64,000 nt of DNA, from contig CAZSGW010000002.1 in the NCBI GenBank assembly GCA_964606775.1, forward strand, positions 16,129 to 80,128, written 5' to 3'. Below the pieces are notes generated by a model that had not been told where the DNA came from, did no database searches, and was given only the letters and a program-made list of their open reading frames with translations. This DNA comes from Candidatus Woesearchaeota archaeon. Its GTDB lineage: Archaea > Nanobdellota > Nanobdellia > Pacearchaeales > GW2011-AR1. Position numbers and translations under genes: made by a program. Of the stretch, positions 27,299-37,437 are shown piece after piece; within the stretch, counting starts at the first letter, position 1; each line of letters begins with the position of its first letter.

Positions 27299-27859
27299 TT
27301 AATCAAAGTCTTCTGCACCAATTATTTTTTCTGGTAAATTGTAATAACAAGATTCAATCATTGAGGTAAGAGAAGAATTCCAATAAAATCTTCCAGGTTT
27401 ATTCTTTTCTACATATCTATCAAACAATCTTTTTGATTCTTCTGTATACGGATTGATTAAGAGCTCTGAACTTACACATGGTCTCAGTTCAATTTCTTTG
27501 TATCTATCATCATCAATCAACCTTCCAATAGCTTGTAACTCGTTGCCCTGCCTTATTTCAACATTCTTTCCCATTAGTTCCAAACCCCTTATTTTGTTTG
27601 ATTTATTCACTTCATAAAAATTAGATTCAACCATAGAAGTAATGTGGTCTTTGTAAAATCTTCCTACCTTTTCAAGTTTGGCATATTTCTCCAATAATTT
27701 TTTAGATTTTTCTGTATATGGCTTTCCAATTAAATCAACATGGACACAAGGACTCAATTCAATTTCTTTAAACCCATCATCTTTTACAAGAATTCCTACT
27801 GCTTGCAATTTAGAATATTGTTTGATTTCCACGACCTTATTACTTAGCTTTATTCCCAT
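27299..27859 (-). CDS. hypothetical protein with internal two-fold duplication
   Basis: two ~85-aa repeats (ELSPCVHVDLIGKPYTEKSKKLLEKY... / ELRPCVSSELLINPYTEESKRLFDRY...). Confidence 0.45.
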   Translation of the reverse strand: MGIKLSNKVVEIKQYSKLQAVGILVKDDGFKEIELSPCVHVDLIGKPYTEKSKKLLEKYAKLEKVGRFYKDHITSMVESNFYEVNKSNKIRGLELMGKNVEIRQGNELQAIGRLIDDDRYKEIELRPCVSSELLINPYTEESKRLFDRYVEKNKPGRFYWNSSLTSMIESCYYNLPEKIIGAEDFD

Positions 27860-28267: not shown

Positions 28268-29104
28268 TTATAAATTATCTAAAGGGCTTCGAGTGTTGAT
28301 TAAATTCGGCGAAGCAATATGAGTATAAATTAAAGTTGTCTCAGGAGATTTGTGCCCGAGCATTGCCTGAACATTCTGAACATCATAACCATTTTCAACT
28401 AAATGAGTAGCAAAACTATGTCTTAATGTATGCGGATGAACGTTCTTTTTTATTCCTGCTTTTTTAGTCGCGTTTAAAACAATTTTCTGCAAACTTCTTA
28501 TATTGTACTTTGTCCCACGATTACTTTGAAACAAATAATCTTTATCTTCCAAATTTTCGATTTCAATCAAATTCTTTATTTTTTCTCTAACAATTTTTGG
28601 TAATGTGATTAACCTATCTTTTCCGCCCTTTCCATTTCGCACATATCCATAATTTTTATCCAGTTCCAAATCTTTGATTTTGACATTAGTTAACTCCGAC
28701 ACTCTTAATCCCGAACCATACAAAAATTCAATCATCAATCTGTGTTTCCAATTTGAAATGGCATTTAATAATTTTCTAACTTCTTCTTTAGACAAAACTT
28801 CAGGTAATTTTTTTGGAGTTTTAGAATATTTTATATCTATCCACATTCTTTTTTCTAAAACATTTTCAAAAAGGAATCTAATTGCCATATGGCAAGTATT
28901 CATTGTACTTCCAGCTAAATTTTTCTCAGACAAATATTCAAGAAACAAACGAACATCCTTTTTCGAAATATATCTTAAATCTTTTTTTGACCAATTCAAA
29001 AACGAATGAATGCAATGCAAATAAGTTTTAGCTGTTTTTGGAGATAATCTTCTCCTTTTACACTCTTTAATTATTTTAGAATCAATGTCTACAAAAGTCT
29101 TCAT
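28268..29104 (-). CDS. tyrosine recombinase/integrase (XerC/D/A-like)
   Basis: catalytic motifs R...HPHTLRHSFATHLVENGYD...LGHKSPETTLIYTH with terminal Tyr. Confidence 0.9.
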   Translation of the reverse strand: MKTFVDIDSKIIKECKRRRLSPKTAKTYLHCIHSFLNWSKKDLRYISKKDVRLFLEYLSEKNLAGSTMNTCHMAIRFLFENVLEKRMWIDIKYSKTPKKLPEVLSKEEVRKLLNAISNWKHRLMIEFLYGSGLRVSELTNVKIKDLELDKNYGYVRNGKGGKDRLITLPKIVREKIKNLIEIENLEDKDYLFQSNRGTKYNIRSLQKIVLNATKKAGIKKNVHPHTLRHSFATHLVENGYDVQNVQAMLGHKSPETTLIYTHIASPNLINTRSPLDNL

Positions 29105-29242
29105 AGTTATTATTTAAAATATATGTTTAAATATATATTTTGAAACTCTAGAATAAAAACAAAAAAGTTTGAGGCTGAACCAAAATTTACTTCTTTTAAC
29201 CAACTTAAATGCTCAAATTTAAAGGAGTTCGTTAAAAGTCTG

Positions 29243-29482
29243 TTATATTCAATTTTCCTTAACAGGAAAACTTTGCTCAAACATTTTTATAGTTAACTCA
29301 CAACTTTATGGAAGTCGCTCAGATTGACTTCGCTCCATTCTCAAAAAGGAATATAACACTGATTATATTCAATTTTCCTTAACAGGAAAACTTTGCTCAA
29401 ACATTTTTATAGTTAACTCACAACTTTATGGAAGTCGCTCAGATTGACTTCGCTCCATTCTCAAAAAGGAATATAACACTGA
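29243..29482. repeat. perfect tandem duplication, 2 x 120 bp, plus degenerate start of a third copy
   Basis: 29243-29362 identical to 29363-29482; unit contains palindrome GAAGTCgctcagattGACTTC. Confidence 0.95.
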
Positions 29483-29598
29483 TTAGTTTCAATTGCAAAT
29501 TCTCTAAATTGTTGAGTTTGAAAATAGGAGAGGACACTTTAAAACCCCGACCACCCACCCCTGTTAGGAGATGTGTGCTTGGTTTTATCTTCGATAAA

Positions 29599-29627
29599 AC
29601 AGATAGTCAAAACTTTCAGTTTTGAGA
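29599..29627. promoter_or_regulatory. 29-nt motif ACAGATAGTCAAAACTTTCAGTTTTGA with 8-bp palindrome arms (copy 1)
   Basis: identical copy at 34960-34988; each upstream of a + strand membrane/secreted-protein gene. Confidence 0.5.
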
Positions 29628-29800
29628 TTTAATTGAAATAATCTTCCCCCAAAAATTGAAAAAACTTCTTTTATCGGACCAGAAAAATCTCTCGAAATTT
29701 CTTCAAAATTTCGCCTAACAAACGATAAAAGGTTCGCTCTGCTCTCCCAAATTTTTTCAAAAATGAAAAGCTTTTTATATTATGCTTTTTAATATATATT

Positions 29801-31240
29801 ATGAAAAGATTAATGGTGTTAATGAGTGTAGTATTAATTTTTAGTATGGTTAGTTTGGTTTCTGCAGATACTTGTACAGATACAGATGGATTAAATTTAT
29901 ATTCAAAAGGGATGATTTCAGGATACGAAGATGAAAATTATGGAGAGTTTGAAGATAGATGTACTATTAATCCTGGTTCAGATTATACTGTTCTTCAAGA
30001 AGGCTATTGTAAAGAAGATGGAAGTTCTGCAATTTTAACAATTACTTGTTCTAGTGAATGTGTTGAGGGAACATGTGTTGGAGAACAACAAAGTGTACCT
30101 AGTTGTTCTGATTCTGATGGAGGATTAGATTTTTATGAAAAAGGTTCTATATCTGGACCAAAATTTACAGGCAAAGAAGAGGATATTGTGAGTTCAAAAA
30201 CTTATGAGGATAGTTGCACAACTAAAGGAGATATGAATCAATTAGAATATTATTGTGATAGTGGGTTAATTGTTTCAGTAAGTCATTGGTGTCCGCAAGG
30301 GTGTAGTGATGGAGCTTGTTTGCCTGAACCTGTTTGTTATGATTCAGATGGTTTAGACTATTATAATAAAGGGTATACTCAAAAAGATGATGACCCTAAA
30401 ACTTATGATGGATGTAAATCACCACATGACGGGACTCTTTATGAAAGATTTTGTAGGGATGACGGCATTCCGTATATTGAAGATTTTTATTGTGAGTTTG
30501 GTTGTAAGGATGGAGCTTGTTTAGAAGAACCTAGTGAAGAAAATGAAACCTGTGTGGAAACAGATAAAGGTAAGGATAGATATTTGAAGGGTAGAACTTA
30601 TATTGGAAAAGATACTCATACTGATTCTTGTTATCAAGATTCTTTAGTTGAGTATTATTGTTCTTTTGATTTAGAAACTCAAAAAGATTTTATTAAAAAA
30701 GATACTCTTGAGTGTACTCAAGGATGTGAGGATGGAGCATGCGTCCAATTAGAATGTTCTGAAACAGATAATGGGAAAGATGGTTTTGTTAAAGGAACAA
30801 CATGGATTGGAGAAGACACTCACACAGACGCTTGTTATAATAACAATGTTGTTGAGTACTATTGTTCTTTTGATTCTGAATTAGATAAACCTTTTATTAA
30901 AAAAGATGAGATAATTTGTGAAGCGGGATGTGAAGATGGGGCTTGTTTAAATAAAACAATAATAAAACCAGATTTAGATGAAGGTCCAGAAGAAATAAAT
31001 GACTTTAACAAATATTTTTGTTATGGGTGTTTAGTGGAGAAGTCATGTTATCCATTAGGATATAGAAAAGGTGGAGATTATTGTTCTGATGAAAATAATG
31101 AATTTATAGTTCAATTAGAAGCAGAATCTTCTTGCGAAAATAATTTTGAATGTGATAGTAATCTTTGTATAAATGATGAGTGTGTAAGTGGAAGCTTATG
31201 GGCTAAATTTATAAGATGGTTAAGTAAGATTTTTGGTTAA
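29801..31240 (+). CDS. secreted Cys-rich protein with five tandem ~70-aa repeats
   Basis: N-terminal signal/TM, repeats each ending GC(E/S/K)DGAC(L/V); C-terminal WAKFIRWLSKIFG motif. Confidence 0.7.
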   Translation: MKRLMVLMSVVLIFSMVSLVSADTCTDTDGLNLYSKGMISGYEDENYGEFEDRCTINPGSDYTVLQEGYCKEDGSSAILTITCSSECVEGTCVGEQQSVPSCSDSDGGLDFYEKGSISGPKFTGKEEDIVSSKTYEDSCTTKGDMNQLEYYCDSGLIVSVSHWCPQGCSDGACLPEPVCYDSDGLDYYNKGYTQKDDDPKTYDGCKSPHDGTLYERFCRDDGIPYIEDFYCEFGCKDGACLEEPSEENETCVETDKGKDRYLKGRTYIGKDTHTDSCYQDSLVEYYCSFDLETQKDFIKKDTLECTQGCEDGACVQLECSETDNGKDGFVKGTTWIGEDTHTDACYNNNVVEYYCSFDSELDKPFIKKDEIICEAGCEDGACLNKTIIKPDLDEGPEEINDFNKYFCYGCLVEKSCYPLGYRKGGDYCSDENNEFIVQLEAESSCENNFECDSNLCINDECVSGSLWAKFIRWLSKIFG

Positions 31241-31269
31241 AAAATTTTCCACCCCCAAGATTATTTCTT

Positions 31270-31290
31270 CTTCTTTTTAGAAAAAAGAAG
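31270..31290 (+). terminator. A/T palindromic hairpin with T-tract just after stop codon
   Basis: CTTCTTTTT-AG-AAAAAGAAG; same kind of element after stops at 33436-33454, 33475-33495, 36433-36451. Confidence 0.4.
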
Positions 31291-31750
31291 CAAAAAGACG
31301 CACACATCTCTTATTTAATGGGTTTTACAGACGGAACCCACCGTCCTAAAGTGTCCTCTCTAATTATATGACGAGAATTTGCAACTTTGATTTTTTGCCT
31401 TCGGCATCGTTGCACTAAAAATCAATCCTCACTTTGTTCGGAGAAACTAACAAGAATTCCCAGCGTCGATAAATCGACCAAATTTAAAATTTCATTTTTT
31501 GCCCACCCGACATAGGAGAAAAAAGCCTGCGTCCTTCGGGCAGATAGCTGAAACAAGTTTCAGAGAAAAACTTCTTTTACCCGACCGACGAGAAAACAAA
31601 CAAAATGCTTCGCACTTTGTATAACAAAGGGTAAAAGGTTTCACTCCGTTACACCCAAATTTTTCATTTAACTTGAGGGGTTCTTAGTCCTTCGGACAAA
31701 TTGTCGGCTCACGCCGAAATGATTAAAAGGTTTAAATTTTTTATTTTCTT

Positions 31751-32491
31751 ATGAATGAAAAAACTTCCCAAGAAGAATTGTTTAATTATATTCTTAACTT
31801 AACTCCAATAATTGAAATTGAAGAAGTAAAAAAAGATTTAACAACTTCAATGAAGAGAAGAGAATATATTAAAATAAATGGAAATAAAATTAATTTTTAT
31901 AATCTTAAAGCTCATTTAGATACAATACAAAGAAGAAAATATCTTAATAATTTCTGCCTTTATGAAATATCAAAAGATTGTGATAACAAAGATAATATAA
32001 CTAAAAAAGAAGTAGAATTTTTAGACAAAGAAAAAAATAATTATCTTCCAAACTTTCTTATTCAATGCGAATATTTTTTATTCTCAACAAAAACTATTTT
32101 TGATACAATTCTAAAAATGATAAATTACATTTTTCCAGAGGAATCTCAACCAACATCTTTTAGGAGAATGGAAAATTGGACAGATGAAATAAAAATTAAA
32201 TCTCTGATTTCTAGTAATTGGGATTGGTTTACTAAATTCAATGAATTAAGAAATAGCTTGACTCATGATGCTATTGCTGGAATAACAACACAAATAAAAA
32301 GCAAACCTCAAGAAGGAATAATTAATTATTCGAAGAGAAACCTAAAGATTTGGAATGAAAAAAGACAGGAGGAGGATATACTACAATTGCCCAATTATTT
32401 TGAAGAATGTTTTTCAAAAACTAAACAATTCATAAATAATTTTTATGAACTTTTACTAAAACAGAAAATAGAAGGAAATTCTATTTCTTGA
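31751..32491 (+). CDS. hypothetical protein (possible HEPN-like Rx4H motif)
   Basis: 246 aa; ELRNSLTHD motif. Confidence 0.45.
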   Translation: MNEKTSQEELFNYILNLTPIIEIEEVKKDLTTSMKRREYIKINGNKINFYNLKAHLDTIQRRKYLNNFCLYEISKDCDNKDNITKKEVEFLDKEKNNYLPNFLIQCEYFLFSTKTIFDTILKMINYIFPEESQPTSFRRMENWTDEIKIKSLISSNWDWFTKFNELRNSLTHDAIAGITTQIKSKPQEGIINYSKRNLKIWNEKRQEEDILQLPNYFEECFSKTKQFINNFYELLLKQKIEGNSIS

Positions 32492-32753
32492 TTAATTCTT
32501 TTGCGACCTTTTCACCTTCTTTTGTCCTCTTGTAAATCCTTCCCGTTCTATCTTCAGGATTTACAACTTCAACAAGTTTTTTATCTCTCAATTCAGATAA
32601 AGCACGAGAAACAAGATTAAAATAAGTGTTGCTGTTACTTTTGTAAATTTTCATAACTAATTCCGAAGGCATCATAGGTTTATCCAAATTCATAAAAACT
32701 TCTTTTCTATTTTTGCCTCTCTTTACAAAACCTATGGCTTTTAGCAATTCCAT
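32481..32753 (-). CDS. small winged-helix transcriptional regulator
   Basis: 90 aa wHTH-like. Confidence 0.5.
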   Translation of the reverse strand: MELLKAIGFVKRGKNRKEVFMNLDKPMMPSELVMKIYKSNSNTYFNLVSRALSELRDKKLVEVVNPEDRTGRIYKRTKEGEKVAKELIKK

Positions 32754-32846
32754 AGCAATCTATATACAAAGAAATTTAAGAAGCAAATTCAACAATCTAT
32801 TAGCAAAAGGAAAAGGTTTATAAAATAGTTTTCTCTATATTTTATT

Positions 32847-33425
32847 ATGGATAAAAAAGTGACTATTGGAATTGTTGTGGCAGTTATAGTTATCGTTGCA
32901 GGATATTTTATTTTCTTTAATCAATCATCTTCTACAATTTTACCTTCTAAACCTCAAACTTATAGCGGAGATGTTTCTAGTTTAGTTTTTAGTCTAGAAG
33001 AATTACCTGAAGGATACAAAATTGCCGAAAGAACTCCAAGAACAAAATCAGATGTTTCCGAAGAAGGTTTAAGTTGGGGATGGAGCGAAGGTTATTACAT
33101 AAGATATCTTAAAGGTGGAGAAGAAAGTTTATTTGATGTAAGCCGTATTGAGTTATATGTTTCAAGATATCCTTTAGAAAATGTAAGTAAGGGTATTGAA
33201 AATGGGGCTCCAGAATATGAAGGTTATACTATGGAAGAATTGCCAAATCCAAATATTGGCGAAATGTCTTTGGCGACAAGATACACAGATGATGATTTAG
33301 GTTTAAGAGAATATCAAATTGAATTTTATGATAAAGATATTTATATTACTCTTATGAATGGTGGTTCAGCAACAGATTATGAATTGTTAAAAGAACTCGC
33401 TAAAAAAATTGAAGGTAAGATTTAA
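32847..33425 (+). CDS. N-terminally membrane-anchored extracytoplasmic protein
   Basis: single N-terminal TM helix then soluble domain. Confidence 0.5.
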   Translation: MDKKVTIGIVVAVIVIVAGYFIFFNQSSSTILPSKPQTYSGDVSSLVFSLEELPEGYKIAERTPRTKSDVSEEGLSWGWSEGYYIRYLKGGEESLFDVSRIELYVSRYPLENVSKGIENGAPEYEGYTMEELPNPNIGEMSLATRYTDDDLGLREYQIEFYDKDIYITLMNGGSATDYELLKELAKKIEGKI

Positions 33426-33645
33426 TTCTGAAAACTTCTTTTAGAAAAAGAAGGCAAAATAAGAACCCCTCATTTTCTTTTTTAGAAAAAAAGAAACAAA
33501 AAAGGGCAGGCTTTTTTCTCTAATTATTTGGTCGTCGGAAACAACCATCCTCCTCCCCCACCCTAAAATGAAATTTTAAACTCACGAGGAAACTTTTTGT
33601 TTCAGCTCGTGCCCTTCGGGTCTGGGAACAGCAGATTAATTGCAA

Positions 33646-33820
33646 TTCTAAAACCTGCCTTTCTCGACGAGAAAGTAACCATAAATCCTAAAAGTTGTCG
33701 CCTTCGTTAAACGGACAAACGAGGAGAAAAAAAGAAATGCTTCGCACTTTCTTATAACAATCGTTTAACGGTTCGCTTCGCTCTCCCAAATTTTTTCTTG
33801 ATTGAAAGTTGGGGGGCTAA
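33646..33820. repeat. left arm of long imperfect inverted repeat
   Basis: TTCTAAAACCTGCC...AGTTGTCGCC...TTTTTTCTTGATTGAAAGTTGGGGGGCTAA matches rc of 34724-34830. Confidence 0.8.
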
Positions 33821-33822
33821 AA

Positions 33823-34059
33823 CTATTTTTTCCCAGACAGCCAAGAATTAATATGTTCTCTAACTTTTTTATTTGTGGCATAAAGAAAAATTCCTCCCAA
33901 TCCCACAATTACAGAACCAACATACGCAGGAACATCACCAATCAAAGATTTAATCACAAGAAAAACAACAACAATCATTATTGCTGCGACAATGATCAAT
34001 TTTCCTAAATCCAAAATGTCTTCTGTTAATTGTCTTGTTTCTCTGCTCATGTTAACCAA
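33823..34059 (-). CDS. small two-TM membrane protein
   Basis: 78 aa, hydrophobic core. Confidence 0.5.
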   Translation of the reverse strand: MVNMSRETRQLTEDILDLGKLIIVAAIMIVVVFLVIKSLIGDVPAYVGSVIVGLGGIFLYATNKKVREHINSWLSGKK

Positions 34060-34681
34060 ATACCTTTTTTAAGAATCCTTTTTTCTTAGGGGTAATTTTA
34101 GGCATACCATTCTCTTCCATTATCTTAATAACTGCTTCTGCCTGTGCTTTTGCCTCTTCTCCAATAAAGAGTTTTCCCAATTCGTTTATTTTTTCTTCAT
34201 ACCATTTACGTAAAGAAACGCCAAAAGCTTTCTTAGATAAATTTGGATTTTCAATTTCCATCTTTATTAATTTTTTTAATTCAACATCAATAAAAAATAC
34301 TTCTGCATAAACTATGTTAATCCTGTCTTTTTTATCTTCTCCTTTGTATGGAGTCCAAGAAATTGAAACTCTTTCGGGCAATTCATCCATTCTTCCAGCA
34401 TAAATCACATCTCTTAATATTGAAATTGCAAACCCATCAATTAAATCTCTTTTGTCCCTTAATTCTTCAGGACTACATTTCTTTCCTTTTGGGATTACTT
34501 TTATTTCAAACATCCTACTTCCTTCTTCGTTAATATGTCCTTTTTTATCTACATCTACATCCCAACCTAATTCCTCTGAATAATGGGATAATTCTTTTTT
34601 AGCATTAACAATCCCACTAGAAGTAGCACTAATTGTAAAATAGGTTTCAATCCATTTATAATTCTCTAAATCTTCTGCCAT
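34052..34681 (-). CDS. hypothetical protein
   Basis: 209-aa ORF overlapping downstream small membrane-protein gene. Confidence 0.5.
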   Translation of the reverse strand: MAEDLENYKWIETYFTISATSSGIVNAKKELSHYSEELGWDVDVDKKGHINEEGSRMFEIKVIPKGKKCSPEELRDKRDLIDGFAISILRDVIYAGRMDELPERVSISWTPYKGEDKKDRINIVYAEVFFIDVELKKLIKMEIENPNLSKKAFGVSLRKWYEEKINELGKLFIGEEAKAQAEAVIKIMEENGMPKITPKKKGFLKKVFG

Positions 34682-34723
34682 ATTATATAGATTAGAGAGA
34701 ACATATTTATAAAATTATCTATC

Positions 34724-34830
34724 TTAGCCCCCCAACTTTGTCTTTCAGACATTTAGTCTGCCTACGGCAGAGATATATAAAATCAAGAAAAAACTACGGC
34801 GACAACTGGATTTACGGCAGGTTTTAGAAC
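34724..34830. repeat. right arm of inverted repeat (shorter, deleted version of left arm)
   Basis: TTAGCCCCCCAACTT...GGCGACAACT...GGCAGGTTTTAGAA. Confidence 0.8.
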
Positions 34831-34959
34831 TTCTTCGGAAAACTTCGTTTTCCTCGACCACGCTGCGCTCTCGCCTTCGGCTCGGGGCAATTAACAGCGA
34901 TTATATTCAATCGTCGTGTAGATTTATTAAAAGGGGATTGCCGCCTTAGTCCCTTTGGG

Positions 34960-34988
34960 ACAGATAGTCAAAACTTTCAGTTTTGAAG
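34960..34988. promoter_or_regulatory. 29-nt palindromic motif copy 2
   Basis: identical to 29599-29627. Confidence 0.5.
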
Positions 34989-35035
34989 ATTTATTTACAA
35001 AGATTTTTATATCTCCATTTATATTTATATTCATA

Positions 35036-35515
35036 ATGGCAAGACATTATGATGACGGATATGAAATGTATGTTCCAGGAAAAAAGAAACATCATTCACA
35101 TCACTATTCCTCAAGAGGACATTTGAACTTTAAAAATTTCCTTAGAAGATATGTTTATTTTAGAATTCAAAATGATGTTGAACCCCATCTAAAACAATTT
35201 GGCATAATATTTATTATTGGACTTGTTTTGAATTATGTATATTATCAAACTCTTTCATTAAGATACCTCTTTATTGGAGGAGTAAATGAATGGTTTAATG
35301 TTCTAATGCCAACATTAAATTATGGTTTTGGGACAGGTTATAATTTATTTTATCTGATTATTAACGGAATTTTTTATGCCTATTTTTATTATAGTTTTAT
35401 ATTAGTTATTTACAATACGATAACTAATTTAGATGATAGAGATACATGGGTTATGATTGGATGGTTTGCATTAATAATATGGATAATAACAAAGATATTT
35501 CCGCAAATAATATAA
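35036..35515 (+). CDS. membrane protein, His-rich N-terminus (start placed at internal ATG)
   Basis: TATA-like ATTTATATTTATAT ~20 nt upstream of ATG 35036; ORF-track start 34955 would read through the conserved palindromic motif. Confidence 0.45.
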   Translation: MARHYDDGYEMYVPGKKKHHSHHYSSRGHLNFKNFLRRYVYFRIQNDVEPHLKQFGIIFIIGLVLNYVYYQTLSLRYLFIGGVNEWFNVLMPTLNYGFGTGYNLFYLIINGIFYAYFYYSFILVIYNTITNLDDRDTWVMIGWFALIIWIITKIFPQII

Positions 35516-35541
35516 ACAAATATTAACAATCAATTATAAAG

Positions 35542-36414
35542 ATGAAAGATAAAATCCTAAATCAAACAAAACATTTCTGTAAAAAGAAATGGAATCAGTT
35601 TACTTTTTGGTTTACAAAAAAAGAGCATCCAAGAAGTATATTAAATAAAAATGTGTTCTTTCATGATTTACTAAAAATTATCGGTTTAATTTTAGTATTC
35701 TTGATTGTTTATTCAAATGTTGATAAGCTAAATCAAATTGTTTTGATATTTATAAAAATAGGTTCACTATTACAACTCGTATTGCTTTTCTTTATTTTAA
35801 GAAAAGCATGGCATTTGACAATTAACTTGAAATACTTTTTTCGTGGACTAAACCATGGAACAAAAGCTATAATTGCTATCGCTTTGGTTTTATTACTCTT
35901 TATGGCTTTTCAAAATCAAGAAAAAGTAGTTGATTCGGTAGTTGAATCTTACGAAAAAGCAGAATTTCAAAAATTTAATCCTATTAATGCCAATCTAAAT
36001 TTATCTTCATTAAATCTTAAAGGAATAACAAAGCAACTTAACACTTGTCCACAAATTGATGTTCCTATTAATTTTCCTAAATATGGAGACCCTAATATCA
36101 AAAGTCAAACCTATGATGGATGGAAAGTTAAAGGAAGTGCAACTTGTAGAAAGGGAACAAAAGAAGGAGAAAATCTAAATAGATATTATTGTGGTGGATA
36201 TGAAAGTTTTATGGGAATAGGAAGTGTTAATGCTTATGTTGAAAAAACAACAATTTCTGATGACGGAGATATCGGAAAAACTTACAAATATGTTATATGG
36301 AATATTTATGATGAAGATAAAAACTTTGTAGAAACAAGATGTATCGGAGATCCTGACGAGTTTGATAAAAAACAAGCTGAAGCATTTTATAATGAAATGC
36401 TAAAATGGAGCTAA
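35542..36414 (+). CDS. membrane-anchored protein with Cys-containing extracytoplasmic domain
   Basis: N-terminal TM helices, C-terminal soluble domain. Confidence 0.5.
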   Translation: MKDKILNQTKHFCKKKWNQFTFWFTKKEHPRSILNKNVFFHDLLKIIGLILVFLIVYSNVDKLNQIVLIFIKIGSLLQLVLLFFILRKAWHLTINLKYFFRGLNHGTKAIIAIALVLLLFMAFQNQEKVVDSVVESYEKAEFQKFNPINANLNLSSLNLKGITKQLNTCPQIDVPINFPKYGDPNIKSQTYDGWKVKGSATCRKGTKEGENLNRYYCGGYESFMGIGSVNAYVEKTTISDDGDIGKTYKYVIWNIYDEDKNFVETRCIGDPDEFDKKQAEAFYNEMLKWS

Positions 36415-36633
36415 AAATCTAATTCTAATTTTCTTTTTTAAAAAAAAGAAACAAAAAAGGCGGCGGCAATCCCCAGAAAAAAAACTATACACACGACGAC
36501 TTTGAGTTTTCCCTTCGGGACGTTGCACTAAAACTCAATCCCTAACGGGAGAATATAACAAGGATTACATTCAATTTCTTCACTCCATTTAACAGCACAA
36601 AAGCAATAAAAACCCTCGACTCTTCACTCTTAA

Positions 36634-37437
36634 ATGGAAAAAGAAGTGAAACCAAATATAAAACAAGAACAAATTCACGACATTCTTTTCAATCGTGAAA
36701 TAGGTTGGCAAGAAATAATCTATGATTTAATCAACACTGAACAACTTGATCCTTGGGACGTAAATATTTCAATACTCGCCGAAAAGTATTTGGAAAAAAT
36801 AAAGGAACTTGAAGAGGCAGATTTCTTCGTATCTTCAAAAGTACTCCTCGCAGCTTCACTTTTACTAAGAATTAAATCCGAAATACTTCTAAACAAATAT
36901 ATCAAATCAATAGACGAAATACTTTTCGGAAAAGAAGAAAAAAAGAAATACGAAATGGAAAGGATAGAACTAGATGAACAAATACCCGAGCTAATACCAC
37001 GAAGCCCAATGCCCAGATTCAAAAAAGTTACTTTAAAAGAATTGATGGAGTCCCTAAATAAAGCAATATCAACAGAAAATAGAAGGATAAAAAAAGAAAT
37101 AATCAAGAAAAACGCATTAAGGGAATCCTCAATCTCTCTTCCAAAGAAAAATACAAGCATAAAAGACAAAATAAAAATAATCTACGAGAAAATAACAGGA
37201 CATTTTCTAAATAGCAAGACCCACAAAAAAGTACCTTATTCTCATTTGACTGGAGAAAAAAGAGAAGAAAGGATACACTCTTTCGGACCTTTACTACAAT
37301 TAGAAAACCAAAAGAAACTCTGGTTACATCAAGAAAATCACTTCGAAGAAATCCACATCTGGGAAAGAAAATCTTTTTGGAAACACAAAGGAGACCCTTT
37401 TGCAGATTTGCGTGAAGAGGAAGTTAAAAAAGAATAA
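36634..37437 (+). CDS. ScpA-like kleisin (segregation and condensation protein A), tentative
   Basis: N-terminal ...EQLDPWDVNISILAEKYLEKIKEL resembles ScpA N-terminal motif; 267 aa. Confidence 0.45.
   Translation: MEKEVKPNIKQEQIHDILFNREIGWQEIIYDLINTEQLDPWDVNISILAEKYLEKIKELEEADFFVSSKVLLAASLLLRIKSEILLNKYIKSIDEILFGKEEKKKYEMERIELDEQIPELIPRSPMPRFKKVTLKELMESLNKAISTENRRIKKEIIKKNALRESSISLPKKNTSIKDKIKIIYEKITGHFLNSKTHKKVPYSHLTGEKREERIHSFGPLLQLENQKKLWLHQENHFEEIHIWERKSFWKHKGDPFADLREEEVKKE

Follow-up and report, generated by a model that had tools for sequence, protein, structure and literature searches.

A perfect 120-bp tandem duplication upstream of a DPANN xerA gene, read as a probable mini-cassette copy among dif-like sites

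Why should 120 bp of DNA stand twice, without a single difference, directly upstream of a recombinase gene? The question arises in a window of 64,000 nucleotides (the whole stretch of DNA that was analysed here), which has 32% G+C, carries archaeal rpoE, S24e, S27ae and scpA, and is from a Pacearchaeota/Woesearchaeota-type DPANN archaeon. An answer depends on whether the repeat is real, on what bounds its units, on how a second unit could have come about, and on what the surrounding DNA is for.

The repeat and the recombinase gene beside it

The two units, at 29243-29362 and 29363-29482 (minus strand), agree in 120 of 120 bases in a unit-to-unit comparison, and TRF reports the repeat with a period of 120, 2.1 copies and a score of 490. 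This bears out the perfect tandem duplication that an earlier note on this DNA had described, as does its position: the note had put the units some 140 bp upstream of the recombinase start codon, and the measured distance from the repeat start to that codon (29104, minus strand) is 138 bp. The palindrome with 6-bp arms that the note had seen in each unit is present in both copies, as GAAGTC at 29311-29316 and GACTTC at 29326-29331 in copy 1 and again at +120 in copy 2; these arms form a GAAGTC-N9-GACTTC hairpin (29311-29331, second copy 29431-29451) beside the right arm of a site described below. The lack of any divergence had been taken to imply a very recent duplication or an active site, and perfect identity does point to a recent or ongoing event.

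Because the source is a MAG, and because 120 bp, although shorter than typical reads, is near k-mer scales, the second unit might be suspected of being an artefact of assembly, with a single unit falsely expanded or two strain variants merged. We consider this highly improbable. An independent Logan contig assembled at k=31 (L001, run SRR15425353; contigs and loci used for comparison carry L numbers throughout) includes xerA and ends after exactly 30 nt of unit 1. The first 30-mer of the unit is preceded by G at the proximal site (A) but by A where the two units meet (B), which gives it two left contexts. Such a contig end is a forced de Bruijn branch if the 30-mer has two left neighbours, which requires two left contexts in the reads and thus places the tandem junction in them; an error of a single assembler therefore does not account for the junction. 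A tandem architecture is also present in L015, a contig from another study, which starts inside a copy. Since more copies could collapse in short reads, the copy number in the window is best stated as at least two.

The neighbouring gene, xerA (28268-29104, minus strand), encodes a 278-aa tyrosine recombinase, as identified by NCBIfam, Pfam and PDB matches. The protein passes the NCBIfam equivalog model recomb_XerA_Arch (NF040815; 228.5 bits, cutoff 220), has the Phage_integrase and SAM-like domains of Pfam, and can be aligned along its entire length with the XerA structures 5hxy and 4a8e; its nearest homologues are in Pacearchaeota, Woesearchaeota or Nanoarchaeota MAGs. In the alignment with the integron integrase VchIntIA/IntI4 (2a3v), the match jumps from residue 201 to residue 243 and skips IntI 202-242, which means that XerA here is without the IntI-specific domain. 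TIGR02249 gives 212 bits, below its cutoff of 265, with the match split into two stretches, and the XerS model gives 90.5 bits against a cutoff of 267, so the protein is not a XerS. Downstream of xerA lies a 186-aa ORF (27299-27859, minus strand) that consists of two 90-aa halves, a tandem duplication of ~270 bp within the gene, and has no Pfam match.

The earlier note had offered, as one reading, that the repeat is a copy-number-variable promoter region of the recombinase. This reading is not borne out, as a conserved xerA leader and a proximal dif-like site, P (together 29105-29253), stand between the units and the gene. The leader or promoter region itself (29105-29225, minus strand, delimited by blastn) is 71-82% identical to the same position in L053, L016, L017, L019, L009 and L067, and its conserved blocks are also visible in the right flanks of the relatives' proximal sites; the 120-bp units fall in a stretch that is different in each relative. 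At 29193-29200 and 29231-29238 stands an inverted repeat, CTTTTAAC / GTTAAAAG, which shares bases with the spacer and right arm of site P and in relatives (L017, L008, L019) appears again ~35-45 bp nearer to xerA; it could be a regulatory or accessory binding site.

Several further candidates were tried and rejected. A small ORF running from ATG 29309/29429 across the unit junction enters DNA that is conserved as non-coding modules. CRISPR-like or replication-origin repeats were ruled out, there being two units only, no spacers and no orc/cdc6 gene nearby, and so was a tRNA-linked att site, the nearest tRNAs being more than 6 kb off.

Dif-like sites and the cassettes between them

Every boundary of the units is a predicted 28-bp dif-like XerA site, and a unit is exactly one cassette. 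Five such sites in one orientation (P, also called A, then B, C, D and E; 29226-36575) lie upstream of xerA, all given here on the minus strand. Site P (29226-29253) reads ATTGAATATAA-CAGACT-TTTAACGAACT on the xerA strand, with its left arm at 29243-29253, its spacer at 29237-29242 and its right arm at 29226-29236. Site B, the junction of the units (29346-29373), is ATTGAATATAA-TCAGTG-TTATATTCCTT, with perfect 8-bp inverted arms and 0 mismatches to the search pattern; on the other strand this junction reads …CACTGA-TTATATTC…. Site C (29466-29493, left arm 29483-29493) is ATTGAAACTAA-TCAGTG-TTATATTCCTT, with 2 mismatches to the pattern, site D (34884-34911) is ATTGAATATAA-TCGCTG-TTAATTGCCCC, and site E, at the distal end of the array (36548-36575), is ATTGAATGTAA-TCCTTG-TTATATTCTCC.

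Sites B, C, D and E each consist of two imperfectly inverted 11-bp arms around a 6-bp spacer and contain TAA-N6-TTA, which is the most conserved feature of archaeal dif sites, with a spacing rule of TAA(N)6-8TTA (PMC11840125). Compared with the experimentally used dif of P. abyssi, ATTGGATATAA-TCGGCC-TTATATCTAAA (PMC2958812), site B matches in 10 of the 11 bases of its left arm and in the first six of its right arm. Site P, which was spotted by eye, has TAA-N6-TTT, a non-canonical right arm, and keeps only the canonical left arm.

A pattern scan of the window returned five matches where 0.2 were expected by chance: B, C, D and E on the same strand, and the palindromic site B read on the reverse strand. 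With a PWM built from 22 sites, all in other genomes, and with shuffles as controls, D scores 39.9 bits, E 28.7, B 26.1 and C 25.4; the next match in the window reaches 11.3 and the best shuffle 12.2. A probable decayed site inside the array (31440-31467, minus strand; GACGCTGGGAA-TTCTTG-TTAGTTTCTCC), whose PWM score of 7.6 bits is not significant alone, has a right arm and a class-alpha flank hairpin homologous to those of site E. The left flank of site D, ...ccccttttaataaatctacacgacg, is kept in L009, L003 and L004. Contig L073 begins with a right arm and flank identical to those of site D, and the region of site E (36435-36575) is 91% identical to L019 1701-1838. A scan of viral contigs for the site gave five matches, none with the characteristic flanks, which we judged to be due to chance.

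The sites also bear on what the earlier note had seen at the edges of the repeat. The degenerate fragment of a third unit after copy 2 does exist as sequence, in that 10 of the 12 bases there (TTAGTTTCAATT) match the unit start, but it is actually the left arm of the next cassette's site C. The resemblance of the unit start to 36560-36592 is real (36563-36592) and corresponds to the left arm and spacer of the last site, and, as had been supposed, it marks the far end of the cassette region, site E. The suggestion of an attachment or recombination site holds insofar as a recombination site lies beside the recombinase, but this is not one att site. A proposed search for genomes lacking 29.2-36.6 kb, made through the flanking genes with tblastn and blastn over 75 related loci, found none, because synteny around xerA is not conserved at all: on either side of the gene no gene order is kept, and only xerA itself is syntenic.

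What do the sites enclose? The two units are the first two positions of the array. Sites C and D bound a block of several genes (cassette block 3, 29483-34900, minus strand, 5418 bp), probably fused cassettes, whose non-coding modules are common to arrays in L004, L005, L019, L025 and L055 (75-91% identity). Sites D and E bound cassette 4 (34901-36564, minus strand, 1664 bp), with two membrane-protein ORFs. In searches of Pfam, PHROGs and PADLOC, the ORFs of block 3 have no viral or defence matches save weak ones for a 90-aa HTH gene, and the cassette ORFs include no replication, capsid or transfer genes. There is no second recombinase between sites A and E, and Rfam, at gathering and E-value thresholds, gives no family across 29.0-36.7 kb.

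A few features of these cassettes may be recorded in their own right. The product of the first large cassette gene (29801-31240) is a secreted protein of 479 aa, rich in cysteine; the gene has 204-bp repeats within it, and fragments homologous to it lie upstream of xerA elsewhere (L004/L020 8065-8289, L034/L035 8547-9671). The 90-aa HTH gene with its promoter (32481-32807) is 83% identical in nucleotides and 87% in amino acids to L062 190-504, where the homologue sits upstream of a XerA merely 53% identical to that of the window; to judge from the sequences, this match suggests horizontal exchange of array cargo, and the shared segment has no recognisable bounding sites in the window. A repeated hairpin, ACAGATAG-TCAAAACT-TTC-AGTTTTGA, stands at the gene-proximal end of the non-coding leader in two cassettes (29599-29625 and 34960-34986, 89% identical), with a variant at ~31541-31567. 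At its far end the array (36575) stops 59 bp short of the scpA start codon (36575-36634), and the ancestral order was probably scpA, site P, xerA. Archaeal dif regions have been linked with Smc-ScpAB domain boundaries (PMC11840125), and that scpA adjoins the array end here may be a coincidence.

For comparison we used loci encoding relatives of this XerA, 15 from genome collections and 51 from metagenomes, with flanks of 10 kb, together with four contigs of the closest homologues; these data are MAG or metagenome contigs throughout and hold one clean before/after pair. A dif-like site lies ~150-175 bp upstream of xerA in 26 loci, where the half CAGRCT-TTTAACGAACT is nearly constant (1.70 bits per position in the spacer, 1.64 in the right arm) and the left arm varies (1.11 bits per position, 19 variants in the 26 loci) within a kept A-T-T...TAA frame. 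Distant XerA clades (52-58% identity) have a like layout with other constant halves, e.g. GTGTGT-TTAGACGAAGA, so that recombinase and site co-vary. Upstream of xerA, sites of at least 14 bits number 44 on the xerA strand and 0 on the other strand (235 kb); downstream, there are 0 on the xerA strand and 1, borderline, on the other (343 kb). Among the cassettes so delimited, 38 in number, the median length is 764 bp, and most hold a single ORF filling 60-84% of their length, with ORF strands mixed (20 vs 17).

How a cassette is delimited can be read from two contigs of the Hainich wells, L003 and L018, whose flanks are 96-98% identical and whose difference is exactly one 694-bp one-ORF cassette, made up of TCTGTG, TTATGTGCCCT, a structured leader, a 172-aa ORF and ATTGCACATAA. 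Its insertion point falls between the left arm ATTGAAATAAA and the constant CAGACT, with a 2-nt ambiguity and a flanking homology of merely AA. A cassette thus consists of its own spacer, right arm, body and left arm, and the crossover would lie at the boundary of left arm and spacer, the known XerA cleavage position. In the window, the unit boundaries coincide within 3 nt with the left-arm/spacer junctions of sites A and C, and XerA cleaves at spacer ends (review, PMC8371274). Furthermore, independent assemblies break at most 81 nt from a XerA site in L001, L002, L006/L022, L007, L015, L023, L073 (2 nt before the right arm) and L074/L075, as would fit either cassettes that differ between strains or repeats at these places. 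A proximal site and left flank that are alike in L004 (9688) and L006 (82) stand 313 and 160 bp from xerA, respectively, so L004 has ~150 bp extra between site and gene.

The arrays also share structured DNA outside the sites. Directly after cassette right arms comes a conserved module with a 9-bp stem around AGTGCAACG and a cCGAAg mini-hairpin (cUUCGg on the other strand), in which 6 of the 9 stem pairs covary across eight copies. It stands in the window at 36470-36547 and 31362-31439 (minus strand) and in relatives at L019 1712-1806, L008 841-935, L025 6897-6991 and 7846-7945, L016 9343-9442 and L003 5568-5667; it has no Rfam match and may act either as RNA or as DNA. A G-rich motif, GGSGGGTGGYCGGGG on the xerA strand, is often found 30-100 nt before left arms. 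A count over 61 loci gives 28 occurrences, all of them on the xerA strand and upstream of the gene, with none downstream or on the other strand. Its window copy, CCCCGACCACCCACCCC, is at 29545-29561, relatives with it include L003, L004, L019, L025, L036 and L042, and it could be an accessory-protein site or a G-quadruplex. The non-coding modules are 75-91% identical between genomes while the cargo genes differ.

Origin and meaning of the second unit

Copy 1 is laid out as spacer TCAGTG, right arm, body and left arm ATTGAATATAA, without an ORF. To begin with that spacer and end with that left arm is the cassette phase of the relatives, so the repeat is to be read as two copies of one ORF-less mini-cassette. 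Site A then joins the unit's left arm to the constant half, site B joins the unit's left arm to the unit's spacer and right arm, and site C joins the next cassette's left arm to the unit's spacer and right arm. The mini-cassette is without the AGTGCAACG hairpin module and the G-rich motif, both of which ordinary cassettes have, and its GAAGTC hairpin occupies the spot where normal cassettes have the covarying hairpin module. Homologous ORF-less mini-cassettes of 100 bp in L015 and 97 bp in L007 (a contig that starts 6 nt before the site) have spacer and arm blocks in common with it, and all three share a core, GTTGYGAG..TGTTTGAG(C)AAAGTT. In the closest relatives (85-86% XerA identity) the mini-cassette is absent and other first cassettes take its place, which argues for fast turnover at the first array position.

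A core kept in three genomes could also mean that the unit itself is selected, as a dosage-sensitive element (a promoter, a small RNA gene or a protein-binding platform) that the sites merely flank. The TATA-like TTTTTATA in the window unit and its fold z-scores of about -2 fit such an element, but the TATA-like box is not kept in L007, Rfam has no match, the homologues' z-scores are only -0.9 and -1.3, and those same closest relatives do entirely without the unit. Selection for dosage is, in our estimation, quite unlikely to account for the repeat.

We find it probable that the second unit is a XerA-mediated copy of the mini-cassette, made at the insertion site of an Xer/dif-based, integron-like platform, with XerA put forward as the catalyst of such cassette events. 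New cassettes would enter at site P, the putative insertion point, where spacer and right arm stay constant and each newcomer supplies the left arm. By the simplest route, P on one sister chromosome would recombine with C on the other in an unequal exchange, yielding junction B; a second route, in which an excised mini-cassette re-integrates a second time, would have the same outcome. Junction B indeed consists of the left arm of P with the spacer and right arm of C. With the arms and spacer of B repeated in C, further unequal exchange is to be expected, and an unstable copy number is predicted.

Several points weigh against this reading. The mini-cassette is without the two modules of ordinary cassettes, and the right arm of P departs from the canonical arm. 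The spacers are non-homologous (CAGACT in P against TCAGTG and others in the cassettes), so a full two-step Xer reaction is not expected, and we infer a single strand exchange that would then be resolved by replication. This is the route by which integron attI x attC recombination and the entry of CTXphi at dif1 take place. For excision, a circle of 120 bp would be close to the smallest feasible size, which for Cre is ~82 bp.

The same arms could have served without any recombinase, in replication slippage or in an unequal homologous exchange. Two left arms of 11-12 bp that resemble each other, TTATATTCAATT and TTAGTTTCAATT, stand 120 bp from one another; the overlap with the sites would then arise only because the arms are the sole short repeats available. 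Tandem duplications between short direct repeats are common in general, the arms have TTA and TTCAATT in common, and a duplication could equally be reached via 3-nt microhomology. The junction, however, speaks otherwise: the middle arm, at B, is fully A-type, so the exchange took place in or next to the 3-nt TAA, with at most the 3-nt TTA used. That the 7-nt block TTCAATT, the longer of the two, was passed over tells against slippage driven by homology. The insertion that separates L018 from L003 has the same cassette phase, with no more than AA to guide it, and tandem mini-cassettes appear again in L015. A slippage origin strikes us as improbable.

A copy made by XerA as proposed above could still mean something different biologically, if P is a plain chromosomal dif and the cassettes, the 120-bp unit included, are parasitic IMEX-like hitchhikers with no dedicated gene-capture platform. 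IMEX form tandem arrays at dif, and the XerA of the window passes a housekeeping equivalog model. A dif upstream of xerA has a precedent in haloarchaea (PMC11840125), and XerS/difSL (PMC2731167) provides another. On the other hand, the cassettes are 0.35-1.5 kb long, single-ORF and without replication, capsid or transfer genes, and they have common, polar, structured non-coding modules, much as integron cassettes share attC families. We see hitchhiking at an ordinary dif as a serious possibility, though an unlikely one.

Possible gene capture in DPANN archaea and its known counterparts

We put the chances at about even that Pacearchaeota/Woesearchaeota-type DPANN archaea carry an undescribed integron-like gene-capture platform built from Xer/dif, of which the 120-bp duplication would be a fresh product. 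If this is true, the parts of the platform are XerA, an adjoining half-conserved insertion site, polar arrays of mobile, mostly single-gene cassettes, and structured accessory modules; cassette capture would then have arisen from a Xer recombinase independently, in parallel with the origin of IntI. DPANN genomes are tiny, and gene gain and loss in them are poorly understood; a XerA-anchored array would offer these archaea a defined hotspot at which to take up surface, membrane and regulatory genes, and it would be an example of housekeeping Xer/dif serving as an integron-like platform without an IntI domain or folded attC, which bears on the evolution of integrons from Xer-like recombinases. 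The duplication, with three sites 120 bp apart, two of them identical, is a testable substrate on which XerA activity, strand-exchange order and spacer needs are measurable. We found no description of XerA-linked cassette arrays in the literature searched, the coverage of which was incomplete and hence gives no proof of novelty.

Among the closest known counterparts are the archaeal XerA/dif systems of P. abyssi, Thermococcus kodakarensis and Thermoplasma, which likewise have a single XerA-family recombinase and 11-6-11 sites with TAA-N6-TTA, the left arm here being nearly identical to that of the P. abyssi dif. The difference lies in arrangement: the dif of Thermococcales is single and does not adjoin xerA, whereas here several sites in the same orientation stand directly upstream of xerA and bound variable gene cassettes. 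Archaeal XerA/dif serves to resolve chromosome dimers at one site close to the replication terminus, and the GC skew within the 64-kb window is uninformative as to such a location. In the linkage of a single Xer to an asymmetric site immediately upstream, the locus resembles XerS/difSL of streptococci and lactococci (PMC2731167), but XerS/difSL has no cassette array and the protein here is not a XerS.

Integrons are counterparts in terms of organisation. In both, a primary site with a constant half adjoins the recombinase gene and receives new cassettes, and in both there are polar arrays of mostly one-ORF cassettes of ~0.4-1 kb, with shared structured boundary modules and cassette duplications. 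A canonical integron was nevertheless ruled out, as the IntI domain and attC sites are absent. The attC sites of integrons are imperfect palindromes of 55-140 nt (R''-L''...L'-R') that recombine as folded single strands with a crossover at G|TTRRRY, whereas the sites here, judged from their sequences, are 28-bp dif-like sites of a double-strand type, with a crossover at TAA|N and no GTTRRRY core, and the recombinase has no IntI-specific domain. The archaeal integrons of Ghaly et al. have the IntI domain and folded attC with a G|TT crossover (PMC9668308). Cassette genes here lie in both orientations (20 vs 17), which does not suggest a common Pc logic like that of integrons.

Among mobile elements, the IMEX (CTXphi, TLCphi, VGJphi and the gonococcal genetic island) are alike in being integrase-less DNA that uses a host Xer, has dif-like flanks and forms tandem arrays, and the non-homologous spacers here suggest a one-strand-exchange route as in IMEX. 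Unlike IMEX, the units here are tiny, usually single-gene and without replication or transfer genes, and they belong to an archaeon with a single recombinase. The pdif modules of Acinetobacter, too, are small gene modules bounded by Xer sites, and they are shuffled between replicons; their sites, which point in alternating directions, are found on plasmids and not near xer genes, whereas all 44 upstream sites here are direct repeats, anchored to xerA and chromosomal (rpoE, S24e, S27ae, scpA). Set beside all of these, the putative Xer/dif-based cassette platform seems a new version of site-specific recombination systems already known.
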